Assembly (NCBI GenBank): GCA_016931275.1
Contig: JAFGFA010000018.1
Coordinates: forward strand, 6,492-70,491
DNA from: Parachlamydiales bacterium
Lineage (GTDB): Bacteria; Chlamydiota; Chlamydiia; Chlamydiales; SM23-39
Direction: 5' to 3'
DNA: 64,000 nucleotides
The position numbers and the translations under genes were made by a program. Position 1 is the first letter of the stretch. Each line of letters begins with the position of its first letter. Shown piece after piece: positions 23,298 through 39,579 of this stretch. The notes under the pieces are model-generated. The model saw nothing but the letters and a program-made list of their open reading frames with translations. It was not told where the DNA came from and did not search any database.

Positions 23298-25799
23298 CTA
23301 TTTTTTGAAATGCTTTCCGAGGATTTTTGAAAGTTGCATCATATCGATAGGATCTTTGTTCCCAAAAACCTTGGAGAGTTTTTCGTCGGGAATAATCTCT
23401 CGTTTATTTTTGGGATTTTGCAATTCATGCGTTTTAATATATTCCCATACTTTTTTAATGACTTCTCCTCGAGAGAGTTCTTTTTCTTTGGTGATTTGCG
23501 CTAGTTCCTCACTCAATTGATACTTATATCCTTTCCCTTTTCCTTTCCAAGAACCTTTCTTTTGATAGGGCGTTTTAGGATGATGTTCGTCATATTTTTT
23601 TTCTAAATCTTCCAAATTGTTGACGATTACGTCACAGTCCGGAAAATTGGAACAGGAATAAAATATTTTTCCAAAACGGGAACGTCGCATTAAAATTTTA
23701 CCGTCGCATCCCAAAGCTGGACAATCCGGTCTTTCCTCCGGTTTCAAGGAAACTTCTCCTTTCTTGGGAATATTCACGATTCCTTGGCAGTCAGGATATT
23801 TTGAACACCCTAAAAAAGGGCCGAACTTTCCATGACGGATAACCATGGGGGAAGAGCATTTAGGACATTTTTGATCCCAATCAAAATCAGGATCATAATC
23901 TTCCTTATGAAAATCCAAGGCCTCGATAGGAGTAGTATAGTCACAGTCCGGATAATGGGAACAGCCGTAGAAATATTTGTTTTTTGACCAGATTTTTTGC
24001 AGAGGATGACCACATTTTGGGCAGGGGATTTTTGTATTTATTTTGGGAACGACCGCTTCTTTTTCTGCTTTTTTTACCATGGGGATAAATTCTTGGTAAA
24101 ATTCTCGAATCAATTCTTTCCAATTTCTTTTGTTTTGTGCGACAAGTTCCAAATCATCTTCCATCGCTGCTGTAAAACCAACATGCATGATAGGAGGAAA
24201 GTTTTCTTCCAGCATTTGCGCAATAATTTTTCCAAGTTCTGTGGGATGCAAGACTTTATTTTCTTTGTTGGTATAGGATCGGCTTTGTATTTTTTGCATG
24301 ATGGAAGCATAAGTAGAAGGACGACCGATGCCCGATTTTTCCAATTCTTTGACTAGAGAAGCTTCGCTAAATCTTGGAGGCGGTTTGGTAAAGGACTGCT
24401 GAGTATGAGCTTTTTCTAAAAAAAGCGTATCTCCGGGTTCGAAAGGAGGTAAAATGCTTTCTTCCTGATTTTCTTCTTCTTCATCTTTTTTTTCTTCATA
24501 AACAGCCAAAAAACCGGAAAATTTAATTCTTGACCCGGAGGCTTTTAATGTTAGAGAGGTGTTGGTTTCAATTTCAGCGCTGATGGTGTCGTAAAGAGCA
24601 TCTTTCATTTGTGAGGAAATGAACCGTTTCCAGATCAGCTGATAAATTTTAAATTGGTCCGCGGTAAGATATTGTTTCACTGTTTCCGGTGGATGGTTGA
24701 GATTGGTAGGGCGAATAGCTTCATGGGCCTCTTGGGCTACTTTTTTGCTGGTATAATACCGGGGCTTTTCAGGAAGATAGTCGGCTCCATATTCTTTTTC
24801 GATATAATCTCGAGCGGCGTAGATTGCTTCAGGGGCAATTTTCACCGAATCGGTTCTCATATAGGTAATCAGTCCTTCTACCCCTTCTTTTTTCATGTCG
24901 ATCCCTTCGTAAAGGGTTTGCGCGATAGTCATTGTTCGCGCCACATTATAGCCATAATGCCTAGAAGCTTCTTGTTGCAATGTTGAAGTGATAAAAGGAG
25001 GAACCGGCGAACGTTTTTTTTCTTTTTGCTCTACACTTTTTACCTGAAAGATCGACTGCTCTATCTTGTGTAGCAAGGCTTTCGCGACTTGCTCGTTGGC
25101 AATATGAAAAATTCCTTTTTTAGGGATCTTGTCAACTTTTTCGCCATCAACCATATGTAAAACAGCTTCAAAAGGGGTTTGTCTCTCTTTGGCGGTCAGT
25201 ATGGCCCAAATATTCCAATATTCTGTTGGGACAAAAGCTTCTATTTCTTTTTCTCGGTCGACTACAAATTTTAGAGCAACTGATTGAACTCGACCCGCCG
25301 ATGTTCCGTCTTTTCCTTTTCGAATTTTTCTGGTCAGAATAGGAGAAATTTTATATCCTACAATACGATCTAAAAGTCGACGTGCTTGTTGCGCATTTAC
25401 TAGATCAATGTTGATATCGGTCGGATGTTTAAATGCTTGGAGTACAGCTGATTTTGTTAAGGAATGAAAAGAGACTCGCTTGGTCTTCGTTCCTTTAGGA
25501 AGGATGGATTGAATGTGCCATGCAATCGCTTCTCCTTCTCTGTCAGGATCGGGAGCTAGATAGACAAGATCGGTAGATTTGGCTTGTGTTTTGAGTTTTT
25601 GAATAACCTCTTTTTTTTCAGGGAGATTGACATATTTTGGGGTAAAGTCATGTTCGACATCAATACCAAATTCTTTTTTGGGAAGGTCTCGAATATGTCC
25701 AATCGAAGAAGTTATGAGATATTCTGATCCTAAAAATTTTTTTAAAGTCTTAATTTTTGCGGGAGATTCCACAATAACTAAAGCTTTCTGTTTGCCCAT
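23298..25799 (-). CDS. topA: DNA topoisomerase I with zinc ribbons and C-terminal SWIB domain
   Basis: IVESPAK, DPDREGE, SAGRVQS, LITYMRTD, GIGRPSTYA, three Cys ribbons, SWIB-like SRGEVIKKVWEYIK. Confidence 0.98.
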   Translation of the reverse strand: MGKQKALVIVESPAKIKTLKKFLGSEYLITSSIGHIRDLPKKEFGIDVEHDFTPKYVNLPEKKEVIQKLKTQAKSTDLVYLAPDPDREGEAIAWHIQSILPKGTKTKRVSFHSLTKSAVLQAFKHPTDINIDLVNAQQARRLLDRIVGYKISPILTRKIRKGKDGTSAGRVQSVALKFVVDREKEIEAFVPTEYWNIWAILTAKERQTPFEAVLHMVDGEKVDKIPKKGIFHIANEQVAKALLHKIEQSIFQVKSVEQKEKKRSPVPPFITSTLQQEASRHYGYNVARTMTIAQTLYEGIDMKKEGVEGLITYMRTDSVKIAPEAIYAARDYIEKEYGADYLPEKPRYYTSKKVAQEAHEAIRPTNLNHPPETVKQYLTADQFKIYQLIWKRFISSQMKDALYDTISAEIETNTSLTLKASGSRIKFSGFLAVYEEKKDEEEENQEESILPPFEPGDTLFLEKAHTQQSFTKPPPRFSEASLVKELEKSGIGRPSTYASIMQKIQSRSYTNKENKVLHPTELGKIIAQMLEENFPPIMHVGFTAAMEDDLELVAQNKRNWKELIREFYQEFIPMVKKAEKEAVVPKINTKIPCPKCGHPLQKIWSKNKYFYGCSHYPDCDYTTPIEALDFHKEDYDPDFDWDQKCPKCSSPMVIRHGKFGPFLGCSKYPDCQGIVNIPKKGEVSLKPEERPDCPALGCDGKILMRRSRFGKIFYSCSNFPDCDVIVNNLEDLEKKYDEHHPKTPYQKKGSWKGKGKGYKYQLSEELAQITKEKELSRGEVIKKVWEYIKTHELQNPKNKREIIPDEKLSKVFGNKDPIDMMQLSKILGKHFKK

Positions 25800-25876: not shown

Positions 25877-26725
25877 ATGTTTTCTGACAAACAATTAATA
25901 CAATGGAATAGAGAAGGCTGGTTTCCCGGACCTCATGAAAAGGAACAGGAATTTTATCAACGAGTCCAAATAGGTAAAAATTTTTTTTATAATCCTGAAA
26001 AGTCTTCTCTTCCTCAATGGGCAAATCATCGAGTTTATCCATCCCGATATAATTGGGTTTTAGCGCACTTGCATTCTCTGTTTGATATTATTCCGGAAGA
26101 AATTTATGTGTTTTTTTCTAAAAAATCATTGCGAGCCTTTGAAGGAGGCGCTTTTTGGACATTGTCTATGGAAAAAAGTCATGTGCCATTGGTGCAATTA
26201 CATGAAACACTGCAAAAAAAATCTTTATATGGAATATACAGCCTGGAAGAAATTCTCTCGCATGAACTGATTCATGCCTGTCGTTTAGGATTTGAGGATC
26301 ATTCGATAGAAGAGTTTTTTGCCTATATGAGCTCAAGCTCTGCTTTTCGAAAGATCTTTGGTCCTCTTTTTTCTTCTCCTCGAGAAGTGGGCGTTTTTTT
26401 TATTATTTTGGGAATCGTTTTGCTTTGTTCTTGGGTTAGTCCCTTTTCCATTTTTACCCTATGGGCGCATATGCTTTTTTTAGGCGCGAGCGGTTTTTTC
26501 CTCTGGAGGCTTTTTTATAGACGATGGAAATGGAATCGATGTTACAAAAAATTTTGCGCTCTTTTTAAAGACCCTTCGAAAGCCCGGGCTATGATGTTTC
26601 GTTTAAGCAAAAGAGAGATGGAAGAATTTTCTCGGTTGTCGAGAGAAGAAATTGTCGCAACCGTGACATCTCGTGCTAAGGTGAACTATCGCTGGAAGAT
26701 AATTGTTTTAGCCTATTTTTCCTAA
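25877..26725 (+). CDS. Membrane protein with zincin HExxH motif
   Basis: HELIH (26261-26275) followed 11 aa later by EEFFAY; two TM helices in the C-terminal half. Confidence 0.65.
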   Translation: MFSDKQLIQWNREGWFPGPHEKEQEFYQRVQIGKNFFYNPEKSSLPQWANHRVYPSRYNWVLAHLHSLFDIIPEEIYVFFSKKSLRAFEGGAFWTLSMEKSHVPLVQLHETLQKKSLYGIYSLEEILSHELIHACRLGFEDHSIEEFFAYMSSSSAFRKIFGPLFSSPREVGVFFIILGIVLLCSWVSPFSIFTLWAHMLFLGASGFFLWRLFYRRWKWNRCYKKFCALFKDPSKARAMMFRLSKREMEEFSRLSREEIVATVTSRAKVNYRWKIIVLAYFS

Positions 26726-31317: not shown

Positions 31318-34300
31318 TCAATAGGGGGGTTTTCGCAATTCTCCTTCTCTAGGAGAGAGATTGCCATATCGTTCATATTCACAACTAATAGTACATTCCC
31401 GTAAATAGTGTAATAGTTCTAATCTGCCATTAGCTAATACGGAATCGGTAGCAATAAAAGTCATCGAAGCCGCCGCCGCTTCTTTCACTAAATAAGAAGG
31501 AGGAGTAAGCATCCGGATCAGTTCAAAATCTTCTTTTCGTATTCGACTAATAAATTGATCTTCCGGTTCATCATAAATTTTGAGAAAAGAAGACATATTG
31601 AACCAATCAATGGAAGAAGGGATTTGAGCATCAAAACTGATTTGTAAAGCGGCTTTACATGTAAGAGCCGCTGCAATAACTCTAAGATAATCAAGAGTAG
31701 GCGCTTTTTCTTCTATACGCAGGATAATTTTTTTCTTGGGAACATAGCCAAATAAATTATCCTGACCGATGATTTTTGAGGGATCTCTAAACTGTTTCAT
31801 GCGATGCCACCAAAAAGAATAATTTGCCACACTGCTGTACCACAGTCCTAAATCCTCTGCATTGAGTTCCAGTTTTTCAAGGAAGCTTGTCAGCCGGTTA
31901 ACCTCTTCTGAAACAGGCCTTTTTTGCTGAGGAAGAGATGTTTGTCGTGCATGCATGCATCCTTTAAGAAAATTAGGCCCTCCAGTTTTATAACCATGAC
32001 CAAAGGAGCTTTTTTTTATTCCCCCAAAAGGCTCTCGTCGAATAGAAGAACTGGTCATGCTTTTATTAATATAGAAATTTCCAACTTCGATCTTTTTTTG
32101 CCATTGATATTGCTCTTGGGGATCCAAGGATTGAATGCCTGCTGAGAGACTAAAGGGAATTTGCGCTGCAATATCTAAAGCATCGCGAAAATTTTTAGCT
32201 CTTACCAGAGAAAGAACCGGTCCAAGACAAGGCGTTCGAAAAGAAAAACTTTTCGGAGAGGATCCCATTTTAATGCCGGGGGACCACAAGTAGGGATGAT
32301 GATTGGTAAGGGTCGGTTGTAAAAGCCATTTTTCTCCAGTATCTAATTCCGTGAGGCTTTTTTTTATCGTTACTTCGGGAAAATTGATTAAAGAAGGTAT
32401 TTGAGTTTCTAAATTCCAGGAAGGCCCTGCGATCAAACTTAGGGCTGCCTCTTTGAGGTTTTCGAGAAATTGTATGTCATTATAGACTTCTTCTTCCAAA
32501 ATAGCTAGAGAAGTAGACCCATATTTTTGTCCGCTGTATCCAAAAGCAGACTCGACCAATTCCTTGATCGCCCGATCCTTATCGGCCATAGCTGTGATGA
32601 TCATAGCGTTATTGCCGTGAGTAATTGCCGTAAGGTCTATCTGAGGGTTGATATGCAAGAATTTATGTGCTGTGGACGATTTTCCCGTTAGAATAATAGA
32701 AGAGATTCGGCGATCGGGAATAATATGGGTTTCTGTAATATCTTGTGTGCAATGGATTAATTGTAAGGCTTCTTTAGGAACGTTTGCATCCCACATGGCC
32801 TGGGCTATGTAACTTCCAACTAGAGCTGCTTCCGGAGCGGGTTTGAAAATAGCGCAGTTTCCTGTAATCAGAGCGGCAATGATACTACTAGTGGGAGCTG
32901 AGCAGGGAAAACTTCGTGAAGAGATGATCCAAAAGGTTCCTTTAGGCTCCCATTCTATATCTTTTATGGCTAAAAACTTCTCCATGCGAATGCGATAATA
33001 TTCGATCGTGTCAATTGCTTCGCAAACTTCTGCATCCGCTTCGGGGAGGATTTTTCCAACATCGGTCACAAGGGCAGCAATAAGATCATCTCGGCGAGCC
33101 CGAAAATTTTGAGCGATGTCGTTAATAATTTTGACCTTGTCTGCATAATTTACAGCTTTCCATGTCTTTTCATATTCTTTAGCGCATTGTATCGCCATAT
33201 CGACATCTTCTGAGGAAGCAAGCGCATAATGATAAAATGGAATCTCAGGAGAGGAGATGTTGTAGCCGAGGCCGGTATTGTCTGAGATGATCTCTTTTCC
33301 TCCTATTTGTAAGGGAAGGGTATTCGGCTTTAGATGTTTGCATTTTTCCAATAGGTTACAGGCCCAGCGTCGATTTTCTCTTTGAGAAAAATCCGTGTGA
33401 GGCTCATTAGAAAAAATCGTATATTTCTCAATTTTTGCAGGAGGATGTAATCGATTTTGTTTATGTCTAGGAGTTGATTCTAATGAGGATATCCACTGAA
33501 AGCTTTCGGAAAACATCGCTGTTTGTTCCTCCCAAAATTTTGTGTGAGGATATAAAAAGGGGAAATGCCGCAAGAAACTCTCGGGAGAGGAATGTGCGTC
33601 AATGGTTCTGAGAAGGTAAGGGACTGTGTTGGTCAGCTCGGATTCATGGGAAATCTTGGGAGTAAAAAGAATGGTGCGGTGAAGAAAAAATTGCTCTGCA
33701 ATCCTTCGTATATAAGGAAAAATTCCAGCCTGCATTTCTAAATAGACATAGGATAGAACACCGTTTTCATGCGCCAAAAGAAGCGCATAAGCAATATCAA
33801 AAATGTTATGCGTTGCGATTCCTAAGTGGACCATTCGAATATTTTCGGGGAGCATTCCATAAGAGACCATTTTTTTAAAATGAGCGTCTGTCAGCACTTT
33901 AGAAAGAAAAGGAGCTTGGGGCCAGTCGTTTTTTGATGCTTTTATTTGTTCCTCTCCTAAATAGGCTCCCTTTACTAGAGATATTTTAATGGGGCTGCCT
34001 CCATTTTGTACGCGTTCTTTCGCCCATTGCGTAAGTTGAGTTTGAATAGGAAATGACTCCGGCAAATATGCCTGAAGAGTAATCCCTGCATAGGTATTAA
34101 TAAATTCTGCTTCCGATAAGAGATCTTGAAAAACAGTTACGGTTAGGTCGAGATAGGTATGTGAATCCATTTCAAAGTTTATAAAAGTAGGCTTTTTATG
34201 ACCCTCGGGTGTGATGATGAAATTTCTGTTGGCAGCCTCTAAGAGGAGGCGAAGAGTACTTTTAATTCTGGGAAGGATGGCTTCTTGGGCAGAAAGATGA

Positions 34301-34929
34301 AAAAGAGGATGTAATAGATTGATTTTGATGGAGACGTATTCAATAGAAGGATTGGAAATATGATCAAGATAGTTTTCAATATGTTTGCGAGCCTGTTTTT
34401 TGCCATAGGTCGCTTCTCCCGTTTCCGCAATCGAGATCACGACTTTTTCTTTTTTCCAGCCATTAAGATATTTTAAAAGATGGGTATAATTACCAATAAA
34501 AATGAATTCAGAGATTTTTTTTTGAAGGGTTCTTAAATAAGAGGAAAAGAAAAATTTTGGTAGGATTTTTCCGAAAGCGTGTAACAAAAACAAGGTGATT
34601 TGTTCTTTGTAGGAAAAAGAAGGAAGGATGCCGTAGCGTATAGAGATATTGATCATTTGTTCGATCACGCGATTTTTAGAAGAGGGTCGAAAAACCTGAT
34701 CTAGGATTGCTAAGAGGAGGCATCGGCTTTGAGGATCATGAAATAGGGCATGAATTTTTTTGAGCCGATGCTTTTCTTTCGGAGTAATAATACTATGTAC
34801 TTCTTTCATCAAAAGATCCGCTAATTCTATCGCTGCTGCTTTTCTTTCCTCTTGTAAAAGGGGGGTTTTTGCAGCCTCTTTGAGAAGATGATGGGCTTGT
34901 TCCAGATATAGGGATTTTTTTATGGGCAT
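31318..34929 (-). CDS. putA: PutA-like (proline dehydrogenase + P5C dehydrogenase) protein with degenerate active sites
   Basis: LQAYLP, LVKGAY, ATHN, EVCEAID, KPAPE, SAFGYSGQK, GPVL, EPFGG, GQDN. Catalytic positions are substituted (see findings). ORF intact, 1203 aa. Confidence 0.85.
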   Translation of the reverse strand: MPIKKSLYLEQAHHLLKEAAKTPLLQEERKAAAIELADLLMKEVHSIITPKEKHRLKKIHALFHDPQSRCLLLAILDQVFRPSSKNRVIEQMINISIRYGILPSFSYKEQITLFLLHAFGKILPKFFFSSYLRTLQKKISEFIFIGNYTHLLKYLNGWKKEKVVISIAETGEATYGKKQARKHIENYLDHISNPSIEYVSIKINLLHPLFHLSAQEAILPRIKSTLRLLLEAANRNFIITPEGHKKPTFINFEMDSHTYLDLTVTVFQDLLSEAEFINTYAGITLQAYLPESFPIQTQLTQWAKERVQNGGSPIKISLVKGAYLGEEQIKASKNDWPQAPFLSKVLTDAHFKKMVSYGMLPENIRMVHLGIATHNIFDIAYALLLAHENGVLSYVYLEMQAGIFPYIRRIAEQFFLHRTILFTPKISHESELTNTVPYLLRTIDAHSSPESFLRHFPFLYPHTKFWEEQTAMFSESFQWISSLESTPRHKQNRLHPPAKIEKYTIFSNEPHTDFSQRENRRWACNLLEKCKHLKPNTLPLQIGGKEIISDNTGLGYNISSPEIPFYHYALASSEDVDMAIQCAKEYEKTWKAVNYADKVKIINDIAQNFRARRDDLIAALVTDVGKILPEADAEVCEAIDTIEYYRIRMEKFLAIKDIEWEPKGTFWIISSRSFPCSAPTSSIIAALITGNCAIFKPAPEAALVGSYIAQAMWDANVPKEALQLIHCTQDITETHIIPDRRISSIILTGKSSTAHKFLHINPQIDLTAITHGNNAMIITAMADKDRAIKELVESAFGYSGQKYGSTSLAILEEEVYNDIQFLENLKEAALSLIAGPSWNLETQIPSLINFPEVTIKKSLTELDTGEKWLLQPTLTNHHPYLWSPGIKMGSSPKSFSFRTPCLGPVLSLVRAKNFRDALDIAAQIPFSLSAGIQSLDPQEQYQWQKKIEVGNFYINKSMTSSSIRREPFGGIKKSSFGHGYKTGGPNFLKGCMHARQTSLPQQKRPVSEEVNRLTSFLEKLELNAEDLGLWYSSVANYSFWWHRMKQFRDPSKIIGQDNLFGYVPKKKIILRIEEKAPTLDYLRVIAAALTCKAALQISFDAQIPSSIDWFNMSSFLKIYDEPEDQFISRIRKEDFELIRMLTPPSYLVKEAAAASMTFIATDSVLANGRLELLHYLRECTISCEYERYGNLSPREGELRKPPY

Positions 34930-35020: not shown

Positions 35021-36022
35021 TTAATGAGAGATTCTTTTAGGCTTCAGGTGGAGCCGTTCCCATAAGGAGGCAGGTTCTTGACTAATGCGCCATAGAGCAA
35101 CGGAAACAATATGTTCTTCTTCATAGAGAGAAAGTTTTGTCCCTAGGCTTTGGATATCTTCAAAATAAACAACGGCATCCACGGTTTGCTGAAAACAGAA
35201 AAAAGGGCTTTGATCCTTGTCTCTTTCTACAATAGAAGAATGCTGTTTCCACAGATCTAACGTTTGAAAATACTTGAGAGCGCGGGCGATCGTCTGTTTT
35301 TGCCATATTCGTCCATAAAGGGGAATTCCTATCACTAATTTTTCTGGAGGAATATTCTTTTTTGCATAGTTTAGTACCTTGGAACACCAAGGTAGAGAAG
35401 CAATTGTTCCTGGAGAGGCAGAGCGTCCATGTTCATCGTAGGCCATTACAATGACCCTGTCGACGATAGAAACAATTTTGGGATAGTCGTAGGCATTGTT
35501 CATGGAGCAGGTTTGTGGAGGGACTGTAACACTAAAAATTTTTTCGTGAGGAATTCTGTTTTTAATTTCTTGAAGAAATTGAGTCAAAGCTTCTTTTTCT
35601 TCCGGACGGATCGATTCAAAATTAATTTGAATGCCATCAAAAGAGGAAGCTATTTGTACAATGTCTTGGATAAGGTTCTCTCTAGTAAGAGGATCCTGTT
35701 TGAGGCACCAGTACATTAACGATCGGTTATAAGGAGAAGAGATTACGCAGTGAATACGTGTGTTCGGTGGAAGAAAAGGGCGGATTTTTTCCGGAAGAGG
35801 AGTTCGTCCTATTCTGCCGATTTCATTAACGGAAGCACTAAAATACGCTGCATCGGAAATAGCATGATTGCTTTTGATAAAATGTTCTTCTCCTTGAAAA
35901 ACATAGGCCCAAATTTCATGAAAGGAAAAGGATCTCTGATTAGGAGGAAGAATTGTTGCCGTTAAGGAAGAATTTTGTAAGAACAAAAAAACGGTAAGGA
36001 TCCGTCGATAAAAAGTATTCAT
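35021..36022 (-). CDS. Exported GH18-family protein (YaaH/SleL-like)
   Basis: Signal peptide, FDGIQINFE, AYDY, MAYDEH, PGTIASLPW, IPPEKLVIGIPLYG, ALWRI. Confidence 0.8.
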   Translation of the reverse strand: MNTFYRRILTVFLFLQNSSLTATILPPNQRSFSFHEIWAYVFQGEEHFIKSNHAISDAAYFSASVNEIGRIGRTPLPEKIRPFLPPNTRIHCVISSPYNRSLMYWCLKQDPLTRENLIQDIVQIASSFDGIQINFESIRPEEKEALTQFLQEIKNRIPHEKIFSVTVPPQTCSMNNAYDYPKIVSIVDRVIVMAYDEHGRSASPGTIASLPWCSKVLNYAKKNIPPEKLVIGIPLYGRIWQKQTIARALKYFQTLDLWKQHSSIVERDKDQSPFFCFQQTVDAVVYFEDIQSLGTKLSLYEEEHIVSVALWRISQEPASLWERLHLKPKRISH

Positions 36023-38223: not shown

Positions 38224-39579
38224 TCAAAAAATTTCCTGTATTTCATGCATATGTTTCGGGCTTGTAATTAAGATGATCGTATCGTTCGGAGAGAGAATAC
38301 GATTTCCTTTGCCAATCATCACCCGTCCGCGATTTTCTATCGCGGCTATAATCAATTCTTTAGGCAAGTCAGCGCTAAGTTGTGAAAGAGGAATGCCGAG
38401 CAAAGGAGAATCCGAAGAGATTTTCATTTCTAATACTTGTGCTTGATTGTCACACAAAGAGGCGATAGAAATAATAGATTCTGCATGAAGGATCGACAAT
38501 ACTTTATTGGCTACGCTAACCCTTTCAGAGAGAGAGACGGTAATATCTAAACTACGCAATATAGGGCCGATCGAAATATCTGAAATGAGAGAAATAATTT
38601 TTTTGCAACCCGTTTTTTTGCCTAATAAAGAAAGAAGAGCATTGGTTTCATCATTTGAAGTGGAGCAAATGAGTATGTCGGCATTATACACTTGCTTTTC
38701 TTGTAAGAATTTCAAGTCTAATCCATTATGATTAATAATCTGTGTGTTCGTTAAAAGATTGGCCAGTTCTTGACAACGCATTTCTTCCTTTTCAATAATG
38801 GTGACGGTAATATTCATTTTTTCTAAAATTCGAGCTAACTGAACGGCAACACGGTTGCCTCCGATCATCACAATATTTTTTGGAGAAGTATGGGGTATGG
38901 GGAAAATGGTGTGCAAGTCGAGCATGGCCTTCGTTTCTCCAATCACGGTGATCTCATCATTATGTAGAATGTGATCATGCCCATGAGGAAAAATAATCAT
39001 CTCTTTTTTTGTTTTAGGATCTATACGACGAATTAAACTGATTAAAATTTCATCGGGTAAAGAGAGCTCGCTAATGGGAAGATGTTCTTTATTCCATTCT
39101 TTGGAGACGATACAAGAACGCATTTGGATAATTCCATGAGCAAAATTTTCCACGGCAAGATCATCAGGACGGATAATGCTTTTTAAAATATCATAGGCTG
39201 TGAGCATTTCAGAGCCAATAAAATAGTCCACATAAAAAAGGCGACTAAAATCAAGCCGAGATCGTTTGAGATAACCGATTTCTTTAATACGGGCGATGGT
39301 CTGGGGATATCCTAAATTTTTGGCAATAGAACAGGCGACAAGATTGGTCTCATCATCTCCTGTCATAGCAATAAAACAATCAGGGGCATTTTCGATAAGA
39401 GTGTCTAATAATTTCCATTCTGCACCATATCCATGTAATGTAGCGACATCCGTCTGTTGTTGTAGTCGTTCTAAATTTTTGATCTCTTTATCAATGACCG
39501 TTACATTATGTTCTTCGTCGGAAAGAACTGCCGCTAGATGTGAGCCGATATCTCCTGCACCTAAAATGACAATATTCAT
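38224..39579 (-). CDS. trkA: Trk potassium uptake NAD-binding subunit (tandem RCK)
   Basis: MNIVILGAGDIG, TGDDETNL, second RCK unit IGGNRVA..DETN; ATGA overlap with the upstream gene. Confidence 0.93.
   Translation of the reverse strand: MNIVILGAGDIGSHLAAVLSDEEHNVTVIDKEIKNLERLQQQTDVATLHGYGAEWKLLDTLIENAPDCFIAMTGDDETNLVACSIAKNLGYPQTIARIKEIGYLKRSRLDFSRLFYVDYFIGSEMLTAYDILKSIIRPDDLAVENFAHGIIQMRSCIVSKEWNKEHLPISELSLPDEILISLIRRIDPKTKKEMIIFPHGHDHILHNDEITVIGETKAMLDLHTIFPIPHTSPKNIVMIGGNRVAVQLARILEKMNITVTIIEKEEMRCQELANLLTNTQIINHNGLDLKFLQEKQVYNADILICSTSNDETNALLSLLGKKTGCKKIISLISDISIGPILRSLDITVSLSERVSVANKVLSILHAESIISIASLCDNQAQVLEMKISSDSPLLGIPLSQLSADLPKELIIAAIENRGRVMIGKGNRILSPNDTIILITSPKHMHEIQEIF

Follow-up and report, generated by a model that had tools for sequence, protein, structure and literature searches.

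What does a bacterium keep when it keeps a PutA without active sites? PutA is a textbook bifunctional, substrate-channelling flavoenzyme. We examined a PutA-like gene in a metagenome-assembled genome of an environmental chlamydia (Parachlamydiales bacterium, GCA_016931275.1; 1.2 Mb, 99% complete), here called G000. Positions throughout are those of the window, the 64,000-nucleotide stretch of contig JAFGFA010000018.1 that was analysed. The gene and its neighbours are as follows.

31318..34929, minus strand: PutA-like gene (P0001); open for 1203 codons, the coordinates taking in the stop codon
29170..31314, minus strand: uvrD; downstream on the same strand, a conserved neighbour that marks positional orthology
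35021..36022, minus strand: GH18 glycosyl hydrolase gene; upstream on the same strand after a 91-base gap

The initial annotation described a 1203-aa frame, free of stops and frameshifts, ending 3 bp before uvrD. A frame check bore this out. Three bases separate the stop codon from the uvrD ATG. No in-frame stops occur in 31318..34929 on the minus strand; the two other frames hold 61 and 68. From the base composition of the gene itself, about 72 stops would be expected in 1203 codons. The gene also has GC1>GC2>GC3, the same pattern as neighbouring genes. Sequence words from the gene were near absent in two metatranscriptome runs of the same study, which says nothing on expression either way. 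The gene was present in a sediment metagenome run, and the listed runs with the gene include no RNA run, so they are uninformative on expression. The surrounding genes, TopA-SWIB for example, are typical of chlamydiae.

Domain architecture and active sites

Three regions were assigned.

33568..34470, minus strand: PRODH (beta/alpha)8 barrel (Pfam Pro_dh, residues 154-454, 122 bits; aligned to 5ux5, 5ur2 and 4nm9)
31951..33237, minus strand: ALDH (GSALDH-type) domain (Pfam Aldedh, residues 565-993, 249 bits)
31321..31929, minus strand: C-terminal ALDH-superfamily-like domain (residues 1001-1203)

Pro_dh is followed by Aldedh in one chain, both above the Pfam cut-off, which is the PutA domain order. 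The NCBIfam PutA equivalog NF008869 scored 243 bits, against a cut-off of 747. An AlphaFold model of the protein (pLDDT 86.5, pTM 0.87) matched the PutA fold of 5ux5, 5ur2 and 4nm9 in Foldseek, with target-normalised TM scores of 0.85-0.87. With good confidence, the predicted fold of the G000 protein is that of a full-length PutA with PRODH barrel, ALDH module and C-terminal ALDH-like domain. The closest solved structure is Corynebacterium freiburgense PutA (5ux5), both by sequence (E 6.6e-127) and by fold (TM 0.85-0.87). The two share domain order, length class and the C-terminal domain. However, 5ux5 and the other solved PutAs compared have the Cys/Glu/Asn and Arg/Arg-Arg/Glu sets that the G000 protein lacks. 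The replaced residues are listed below.

32521..32523, minus strand: Tyr803 for the catalytic Cys of G-Q-K-C (alignment to solved PutAs and canonical family members)
32623..32625, minus strand: Ile769 for the general-base Glu of A-E-T-G-G-K-N (alignment)
32911..32913, minus strand: Ser673 for the oxyanion-hole Asn, P-W-N-F-P becoming S-R-S-F-P (alignment)
32230..32232, minus strand: Pro900 for the Glu of E-x-F-G-P, with the Phe gone too (alignment)
33979..33981, minus strand: Ser317 for the Arg of R-[LI]-V-K-G-A (alignment)
33595..33606, minus strand: Thr442..Ala445 for the second Arg and the Glu of Y-L-x-R-R-L-x-E-N (alignment; R441 kept)

All motifs quoted in the initial annotation (IKISLVKGAY, FINFEMDS, YLLRTIDAH, ISSRSFP, AITHGNNA, GQKYGS and TPCLGPV) were found where it had placed them. 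Residue roles follow PMC12398946 and PMC5786444 where so cited and are otherwise general background.

For the ALDH site, the first reading had been Cys to Tyr, Glu to Ile, loss of the oxyanion Asn and PCLGPV for ExFGPV. Residue-by-residue alignments agree: 5ux5, 5ur2 and 4nm9 carry N, E, C and E..F at these positions. We presume that the Glu and Phe of E-x-F-G-P contact the nicotinamide ribose. Catalytic Cys, general-base Glu and oxyanion Asn are thus all missing from the G000 protein. PMC12398946 gives the Asn its oxyanion role. PutA variants with Cys changed to Ala or Ser are without GSALDH activity in two papers: it is absent from BjPutA C792A (PMC5786444) and disabled in SmPutA C844S (PMC12398946). 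Judged by these residues, the G000 protein is predicted to be unable to oxidise glutamate semialdehyde.

The PRODH site is altered in part. At the replaced positions, 5ux5, 5ur2 and 4nm9 align with R and RR..E. Within the substrate and flavin-N5 set, the substrate Lys K202 and R441 are kept; R317S, R442T, E445A and L400Q are changed, and D253E/E255D are swapped. Hence, the initial annotation was right about the LVKGA Arg, the second Arg of the pair and the Glu. It went too far in counting the first Arg of the pair (R441) as lost, and the exchange of D and E in NFEMD, compared with NLDME, is conservative. Of the 207 homologues classified from databases, P0167 alone also lacks the second Arg and the Glu. 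One Arg of the 441/442 pair presumably equals BjPutA Arg456. In BjPutA R456M, PRODH activity is absent, according to PMC5786444. From the residues replaced, proline oxidation by the G000 protein is almost certainly absent. By its lost catalytic residues, the protein is a candidate pseudoenzyme.

Orthologues, phylogeny and selection

The initial annotation had suggested, among other roles, a regulatory partner of an active PutA. However, searches for Pro_dh and Aldedh found no second PutA in the 99%-complete G000 genome. They returned one Pro_dh match and an unrelated, weak Aldedh match (C28). The latter, a 433-aa protein without an NCBIfam match, was rejected as a P5C dehydrogenase. The partner role is excluded, because the genome has no second Pro_dh or other real PutA-type ALDH.

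We next consider the family, calling PutAs with the catalytic Cys canonical and orthologues without it degenerate. PutA was matched in 94 of 103 family genomes and missing from 9. Among the 92 classifiable genomes, 65 were canonical and 27, from 21 genera, lacked the Cys. The residue in its place was Y, F, L, N, I, P or M. All 27 degenerate PutAs are single copy and 1148-1265 aa long. Their frames are open except that of G021, which has an in-frame TAA, and the G010 copy is only 29% identical. The expected active-site residues occur in 65/65 canonical family genomes, except that a single genome has Pro for the first Arg. Across the 19 active-site positions tabulated, canonical copies are intact but for one departure each in G001 and G012. 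Matches from other families were canonical in 8/8 cases. Database searches with homologues and profiles gave 207 proteins that were classified, 16 of them without the Cys. A profile built from 24 degenerate sequences and searched against 5.8 billion proteins failed to tell degenerate proteins from canonical ones.

Degenerate and canonical copies are orthologues by position. The uvrD gene lies downstream on the same strand at 23/29 degenerate loci and 35/77 canonical loci (31/69 in the family, 4/8 in other families); many of the loci without uvrD run into a contig end or have only a short flank. The canonical chlamydial PutA (65 family genomes; Waddlia chondrophila P0075) is the positional orthologue upstream of uvrD, with 40-47% identity over its full length. 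Its C-terminal domain is equally conserved, but unlike the G000 protein it keeps the active-site positions.

ALDH inactivation is common to a clade of 25 family genomes. In a PutA tree (37 rows), 13/13 degenerate rows fell on one side of a 100% branch. An independent UvrD tree (44 rows) placed 21/23 degenerate-bearing genomes in one clade (96%) and needed at least three changes; the two degenerate cases outside the clade are separate, later inactivations.

Selection was then compared within genera. In 12/12 degenerate pairs, dN/dS was 0.096-0.241, with similar values in the PRODH, ALDH and C-terminal parts. For uvrD in the same pairs it was 0.061-0.196, about the same. These pairs come from genera g58, g50 and g62; the genus of G000 has no second species. 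With NG86, dS was saturated in 61/79 canonical within-genus pairs, which left 18 with finite values. For the clade, purifying selection therefore continued once catalysis had gone; on the branch of G000, only the open frame and the codon-position composition bear on it. That branch belongs to a fast-evolving lineage (in the UvrD tree its end branch is 0.67 long, the median being 0.22).

The main claim of the initial annotation was that a protein without catalysis has been retained, as opposed to a pseudogene in decay. This claim gains support from the inactivation shared by the clade, the position of putA and dN/dS of 0.10-0.24, matching uvrD, in other genera. Since dead copies are kept under selection in relatives, a function other than proline breakdown is indicated. 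Conservation of canonical positions is uneven along the chain. Of the positions at least 95% conserved in canonical genera, degenerate genera retain 93% in the C-terminal domain, 69% in the ALDH domain and 54% in the PRODH barrel, and by this share the C-terminal domain is the best conserved part of the protein in the degenerate clade. The G000 protein retains 23/25, 98/138 and 64/107, respectively.

Respiration, a proposed retained function and competing readings

CydA was found in 0/25 genomes of the degenerate clade, compared with 59/65 canonical genomes and both independent degenerate cases, an association that rests on essentially one evolutionary event. Other markers were uninformative: NqrA occurs in only 7/103 family genomes and MqnA/MqnD (PF02621) in 0/103. 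The clade lacks cytochrome bd oxidase and would therefore have lost the respiratory chain that takes up PRODH electrons. The proline pathway would then be useless, which is the likely cause of the change.

We consider it probable that the gene encodes an old, selectively retained PutA pseudoenzyme at the single positional putA, whose catalysis was lost along with aerobic respiration. A single loss of the ALDH site would date to the common ancestor of a large subclade within the family. The dead PutA would then have been kept for long under purifying selection across all three parts and, because it was so kept, the retained function should need the fold but not catalysis. Our best guess is a scaffold or binding role, mainly via the module of ALDH and C-terminal domains, and canonical chlamydial PutAs may have this role already. 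G000 appears to have gone beyond its nearest relatives, its PRODH site having also lost the Glu and the second of the two substrate Arg residues. None of the 16 sampled members of its subclade shows these PRODH-site losses, so the G000 copy could be on its way out.

An extension of this reading is more tentative, and we would not bet on it. Chlamydial PutA might have a second function, free of catalysis and cofactors, that needs the whole fold and above all the ALDH/C-terminal module. It would have been separated from catalysis at least three times in one family and, after respiration was lost, would impose constraint like that on a DNA-repair helicase. If true, dead PutAs would make up a new pseudoenzyme class in bacteria, descended from a bifunctional enzyme that channels its substrate.

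Alternatively, the protein could be an altered enzyme or a cofactor-binding sensor. FAD would still be bound, perhaps with a nucleotide or anionic ligand in an ALDH pocket that has been remodelled, for another reaction or for redox or metabolite sensing. G000 and its subclade do keep the PRODH-barrel motif residues Q286, K320, G321, H374, N375 and R441, which we take to be flavin-binding. In most members of the subclade, K202, R441, R442 and E445 also persist despite a dead ALDH site. Around that site, changes recur in the subclade: P671S, W672R (8/12), C803Y (10/12), A805S and, in most members, a basic residue at position 750. However, the residue at the former Cys varies between lineages, and newly conserved residues number only 2 clade-wide, 5 in the subclade of G000 and 15 in its sister, forming no obvious new catalytic set. 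G000 itself lacks R442, E445, R317, L400 and the Glu and Phe of E-x-F-G-P. The sister subclade has also lost K202, H374 and R441, yet its dN/dS is 0.12-0.24. Hence, the FAD or redox sensor proposed at the outset may apply to G000, where flavin-barrel motif residues are kept, but not as a function common to the whole clade, one subclade having lost such residues while staying under purifying selection. We regard this alternative as unlikely.

Early decay in G000 alone, where constraint would have gone so recently that the frame is as yet unbroken, is less likely again. It would fit the additional, lineage-specific PRODH-site losses and the differences at 39/252 positions that are at least 95% conserved among 55 homologues. 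Decay does occur within the clade (the in-frame stop of G021, the 29% identity of G010), and nine family genomes lack the gene. Conversely, there are 0 stops where about 72 are predicted, codon-position GC is like that of neighbouring genes, and the predicted fold is confident. The ALDH inactivation is also ancient and shared, with orthologues under purifying selection. Errors of assembly or consensus, or a chimeric bin, might be suspected because the window comes from a metagenome-assembled genome, and consensus errors were a concern of the initial annotation. This reading is rejected as highly implausible: second-assembler contigs cover the gene in all 30 of its bins without a difference or an indel (from what is probably the same sample, hence not independent), and 26 other, separately assembled genomes show the same class of changes. 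Typical chlamydial neighbours and conserved uvrD synteny also oppose it.

Known systems and implications

The reading of a retained PutA pseudoenzyme has partial parallels. According to PMC12041015, vertebrate ALDH16A1 is a pseudoenzyme without the catalytic triad, has an extra C-terminal NAD-binding-like domain and is proposed to act in protein-protein interaction. Like the G000 protein, it is a retained ALDH-fold protein that lacks the triad and has an extra C-terminal domain. However, it is eukaryotic, belongs to another ALDH family and has no PRODH module; the likeness is one of analogy, not membership. Engineered BjPutA C792A and R456M and SmPutA C844S still fold and crystallise, as described in PMC5786444 and PMC12398946. 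These are laboratory point mutants, whereas the G000 PutA has many natural replacements, in both sites, that have long been kept. No report of a naturally dead, conserved PutA was found in the literature searched, which has most subscription journals outside its coverage.

Automatic pipelines label the canonical relatives 'bifunctional proline dehydrogenase/L-glutamate gamma-semialdehyde dehydrogenase'. Because Pfam detects both domains in the dead copy, domain-based metabolic reconstructions would wrongly assign proline catabolism to these reduced chlamydiae. The change in PutA coincides with the loss of cytochrome bd oxidase, which links it to a shift of energy metabolism inside the family. 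That a clade of 25 genomes keeps a PutA of about 1200 residues under selection after the loss of its chemistry points to a function of the PutA scaffold that has gone unrecognised. The dead PutAs, as naturally occurring separation-of-function variants, may offer a way to find it.

Active sites and genomic setting of the G000 gene

The PutA-like gene of G000, the genome of the window, resembles bifunctional PutA, with proline dehydrogenase (PRODH) and glutamate-semialdehyde dehydrogenase (GSALDH or ALDH) halves.

31318..34929, minus strand: putA-like open reading frame, 1203 codons, open
Residues 154-454 of its protein: Pro_dh domain (Pfam)
Residues 565-993 of its protein, after Pro_dh: Aldedh domain (Pfam)

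As the initial annotation described, the frame contains no stops and the uvrD start follows 3 bases after the putA stop. The other two frames contain 61 and 68 stops; about 72 are expected in 1203 random codons at the gene's own base composition. The gene resembles its neighbours in GC at each codon position. The protein scores 243 bits with the NCBIfam PutA equivalog, below the cut-off of 747. Its closest solved relative is Corynebacterium freiburgense PutA (5ux5; E 6.6e-127).

We aligned the protein, residue by residue, to 5ux5, Bdellovibrio PutA (5ur2) and Geobacter PutA (4nm9). All of the substitutions listed initially were present, and the coordinates assigned to the Ile769 and Tyr803 codons were exact. 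In the PRODH half, R-L-V-K-G-A has lost its Arg to Ser317, and Y-L-V-R-R-L-x-E-N its second Arg to Thr442 and its Glu to Ala445. R441, the first Arg of this pair, is retained, as is K202, the substrate Lys. In the ALDH half, the Asn of P-W-N-F-P has become Ser673, the Glu of A-E-T-G-G-K-N Ile769, the Cys of G-Q-K-C Tyr803 and the Glu of E-x-F-G-P Pro900. We take Arg456 of BjPutA to be the second Arg of the substrate pair. In excerpts of the BjPutA study, R456M has no PRODH activity, and C792A has no GSALDH activity and normal PRODH activity (PMC5786444). For SmPutA, excerpts give Cys844 as the catalytic Cys and Asn707 as the oxyanion hole; the substrate is ion-paired by Arg488, Arg489 and Lys265, and its ring packed by Leu449 and Tyr473 (PMC12398946). 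Both canonical chemistries of the G000 protein are without their required residues.

The G000 genome (1.21 Mb, 32 contigs, 99% complete) has one Pro_dh match, the window gene, and no second PutA was found among its Pro_dh and Aldedh matches. The other Aldedh match is weak, and is to a 433-aa protein without an NCBIfam family. Hence, G000 has no active PutA, and the suggested role as regulatory partner of one has to be dropped. The window gene is the sole orthologous putA of G000. A PutP-like sodium/proline symporter is retained in the genome although PutA is dead (locus L115; contig C28, 51009-52202); imported proline presumably serves protein synthesis.

Neighbours of putA encode TopA with a SWIB domain, RpoN, a GT9 transferase, UvrD, a GH18 hydrolase, TrkH/TrkA and enolase, and homologues of the PutA protein bear chlamydial names. 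Fusion of topoisomerase I to SWIB is typical of chlamydiae. Hence, the DNA topoisomerase I with a C-terminal SWIB/MDM2 domain at 23298-25799 (minus strand) agrees with the taxonomic placement. The 282-aa open reading frame at 25877-26725 (plus strand) may encode a membrane protein; its sole match, Reticulon, is sub-threshold (E 0.00097, 19.5 bits against a cut-off of 31.8). An isochorismatase-family open reading frame (39576-40181) shares 34 bases (39576-39609) with trkA (38224-39609), which lies on the same strand, and one of the two starts may be miscalled.

Degenerate PutA in the chlamydial family

In a first set of 56 aligned homologues, 6 (query counted) have Tyr for Cys and lack the Glu and the LVKGA Arg. 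We surveyed all 103 genomes of the family (53 genera). Every PutA match was fetched and aligned, and 19 active-site columns were tabulated. Matches occurred in 94 genomes and in none of the other 9. PutA was canonical at all 19 positions in 65 of the 94, with two single exceptions. One, in G012, is Ser at G772, the rest being canonical. The other, in G001 (locus L007), puts Pro where the substrate pair has its first Arg; a sequencing error, or recent disabling of the PRODH site, could account for it. PutA lacked the ALDH catalytic Cys, and was classed as degenerate, in 27 genomes of 21 genera; the remaining two matches are fragments, left unclassified. At the former Cys these 27 have Tyr (11), Phe (10), Leu (2) or Asn, Ile, Pro and Met (1 each). 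All eight PutAs from eight other families were canonical. Among database proteins from two homologue searches, the Cys was absent in 16 of 207.

Degenerate copies occur once per genome, at 1148-1265 aa, and are open save that of G021 and two split at contig ends. The Tyr type, including G000, mostly keeps K202, H374, N375, R441, R442 and E445, with Ser, Cys, Thr or Ile at 317. In the Phe/Leu type the PRODH site is wrecked too (K202N, H374S/L, R441G/K/Q). Two copies may be in real decay: that of G021 (L017/L113) is interrupted by a single in-frame TAA, which lies between residues ~800 and 802, and that of G010 (L033) has 29% identity to the G000 protein, yet 1148 open codons. Loss of the whole gene is another frequent outcome for putA in the family. 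In genus g53 (G068-G075), the PutA match is absent from 4 of 8 species; CydA is present in all 8.

uvrD lies downstream on the same strand at 23/29 degenerate and 35/77 canonical loci (31/69 in the family, 4/8 in other families), many loci without it being cut short by contig ends or by the shorter flanking sequence first retrieved. In a PutA tree of 37 rows, omitting three fragments, the stop-containing G021 copy, G099 and G056, all 13 degenerate rows fell on one side of a 100% branch. Long branches could mimic such grouping. Hence, we built a tree of the neighbouring UvrD, taking in 44 genomes that each had 350 or more aligned residues. Here, 21 of 23 degenerate-bearing genomes, G000 among them, formed one clade (96%). 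G099 and G056 lay apart, inside canonical lineages, and at least 3 changes were required. This pattern points to one old inactivation, inherited vertically, and two younger independent ones. In the latter, the Cys became Met (G099, L081) or Pro (G056, L094), with other losses alongside.

The electrons from PRODH enter the quinone pool of the membrane. Cytochrome bd oxidase subunit I was detected in 70/103 family genomes: 59/65 with canonical PutA, 2/2 independent degenerate cases and 7/9 without PutA. In the degenerate clade it was found in 0/25 genomes (completeness 76-100%); since the clade is one lineage, this association counts as a single evolutionary coincidence, not as a statistical correlation. 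Searches for the succinate dehydrogenase/fumarate reductase flavoprotein were positive in 60/65 canonical genomes and 11/25 clade genomes, all 11 of the Phe/Leu type; it was not found in G000. With the terminal oxidase missing, PRODH would be of little use and catalysis could be lost. The G099 and G056 lineages keep CydA and SdhA, so PutA can die without oxidase loss.

Conservation, fold and selection

We compared one sequence per genus (18 degenerate, 29 canonical). Positions at least 95% conserved in canonical PutA were kept in degenerate genera at 54% in the PRODH barrel, 69% in ALDH and 93% in the C-terminal domain (1001-1203). G000 keeps 64/107, 98/138 and 23/25, respectively. Newly conserved positions numbered 2 clade-wide, 5 in G000's subclade and 15 in its sister. 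An AlphaFold2 model of residues 1-1200 (56-row alignment) had mean pLDDT 86.5 and pTM 0.87, being weak around 321-340 and 951-980 with short dips near 1051-1060 and the C-terminal end. Foldseek matched it to PutA structures (target-normalised TM 0.85-0.87). The PutA fold is thus predicted to be intact.

An altered enzyme or cofactor-binding sensor is an unlikely alternative. Around the ALDH site, G000's subclade has recurrent P671S, W672R (8/12), C803Y (10/12) and A805S, and a basic residue at 750 in most members, which leaves room for a putative remodelled ligand pocket. The scarcity of new conserved positions, and the lineage-variable residue at the Cys, argue against a common new catalytic site.

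Selection was estimated by NG86 from within-genus pairs. G000's genus has no second species, so values come from genera g58, g50 and g62. All 12 degenerate pairs gave finite estimates: PutA dN/dS was 0.117-0.241 at dS 0.21-1.27 in ten g58 pairs, 0.137 in g50 and 0.096 in g62, and was alike in the PRODH barrel, ALDH and C-terminal domains. Canonical PutA gave 0.022-0.133 in the 18 of 79 pairs with finite dS, the others being saturated. As a control for lineage-wide relaxation, uvrD in the degenerate pairs gave 0.119-0.196 in g58 (6 pairs available), 0.173 in g50 and 0.061 in g62; three canonical pairs gave 0.027-0.047. The ratio of dead PutA to uvrD was roughly 0.8-1.6, and PutA dN/dS was about twice that of uvrD in the two canonical pairs for which both were obtained. 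Nothing in the comparison with uvrD suggests added relaxation of dead PutA. Purifying selection acts on the clade's copies along their full length (0.096-0.241), which are about as constrained as uvrD in these three other genera.

Very recent decay in G000 alone seems improbable. G000 is the extreme of the Tyr type, its missing Arg-Arg/Glu set being shared with only one other of 207 database proteins; its own frame is open. An artefact is scarcely credible.

A probable retained pseudoenzyme

G000 PutA is probably a retained pseudoenzyme. Residue losses, a family clade and purifying selection support and extend the initial reading of a retained non-catalytic protein. By fold, architecture and position it is a PutA orthologue, but judged on the catalytic features that define PutA it does not qualify as an enzyme. 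In PutAs with this architecture, the ALDH/C-terminal module mimics an ALDH dimer. The most similar case in kind is vertebrate ALDH16A1, a pseudoenzyme of the ALDH superfamily whose extra C-terminal part resembles an NAD domain and which has no assigned function (PMC12041015). Provisionally, in the literature searched, with most subscription journals outside its scope, neither a PutA inactive by nature nor any PutA from this chlamydial group was described.

The dead protein would be made and folded like PutA, and its retained role would need the scaffold and not catalysis. That role cannot hinge on the flavin site in every member, since this site is lost as well in the Phe/Leu type. The standout C-terminal conservation suggests that the ALDH/C-terminal module carries a retained interaction, perhaps one already present in canonical chlamydial PutAs. 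The evolutionary evidence is good. G000 PutA is probably a conserved pseudoenzyme that descends from a well-known enzyme with two activities.
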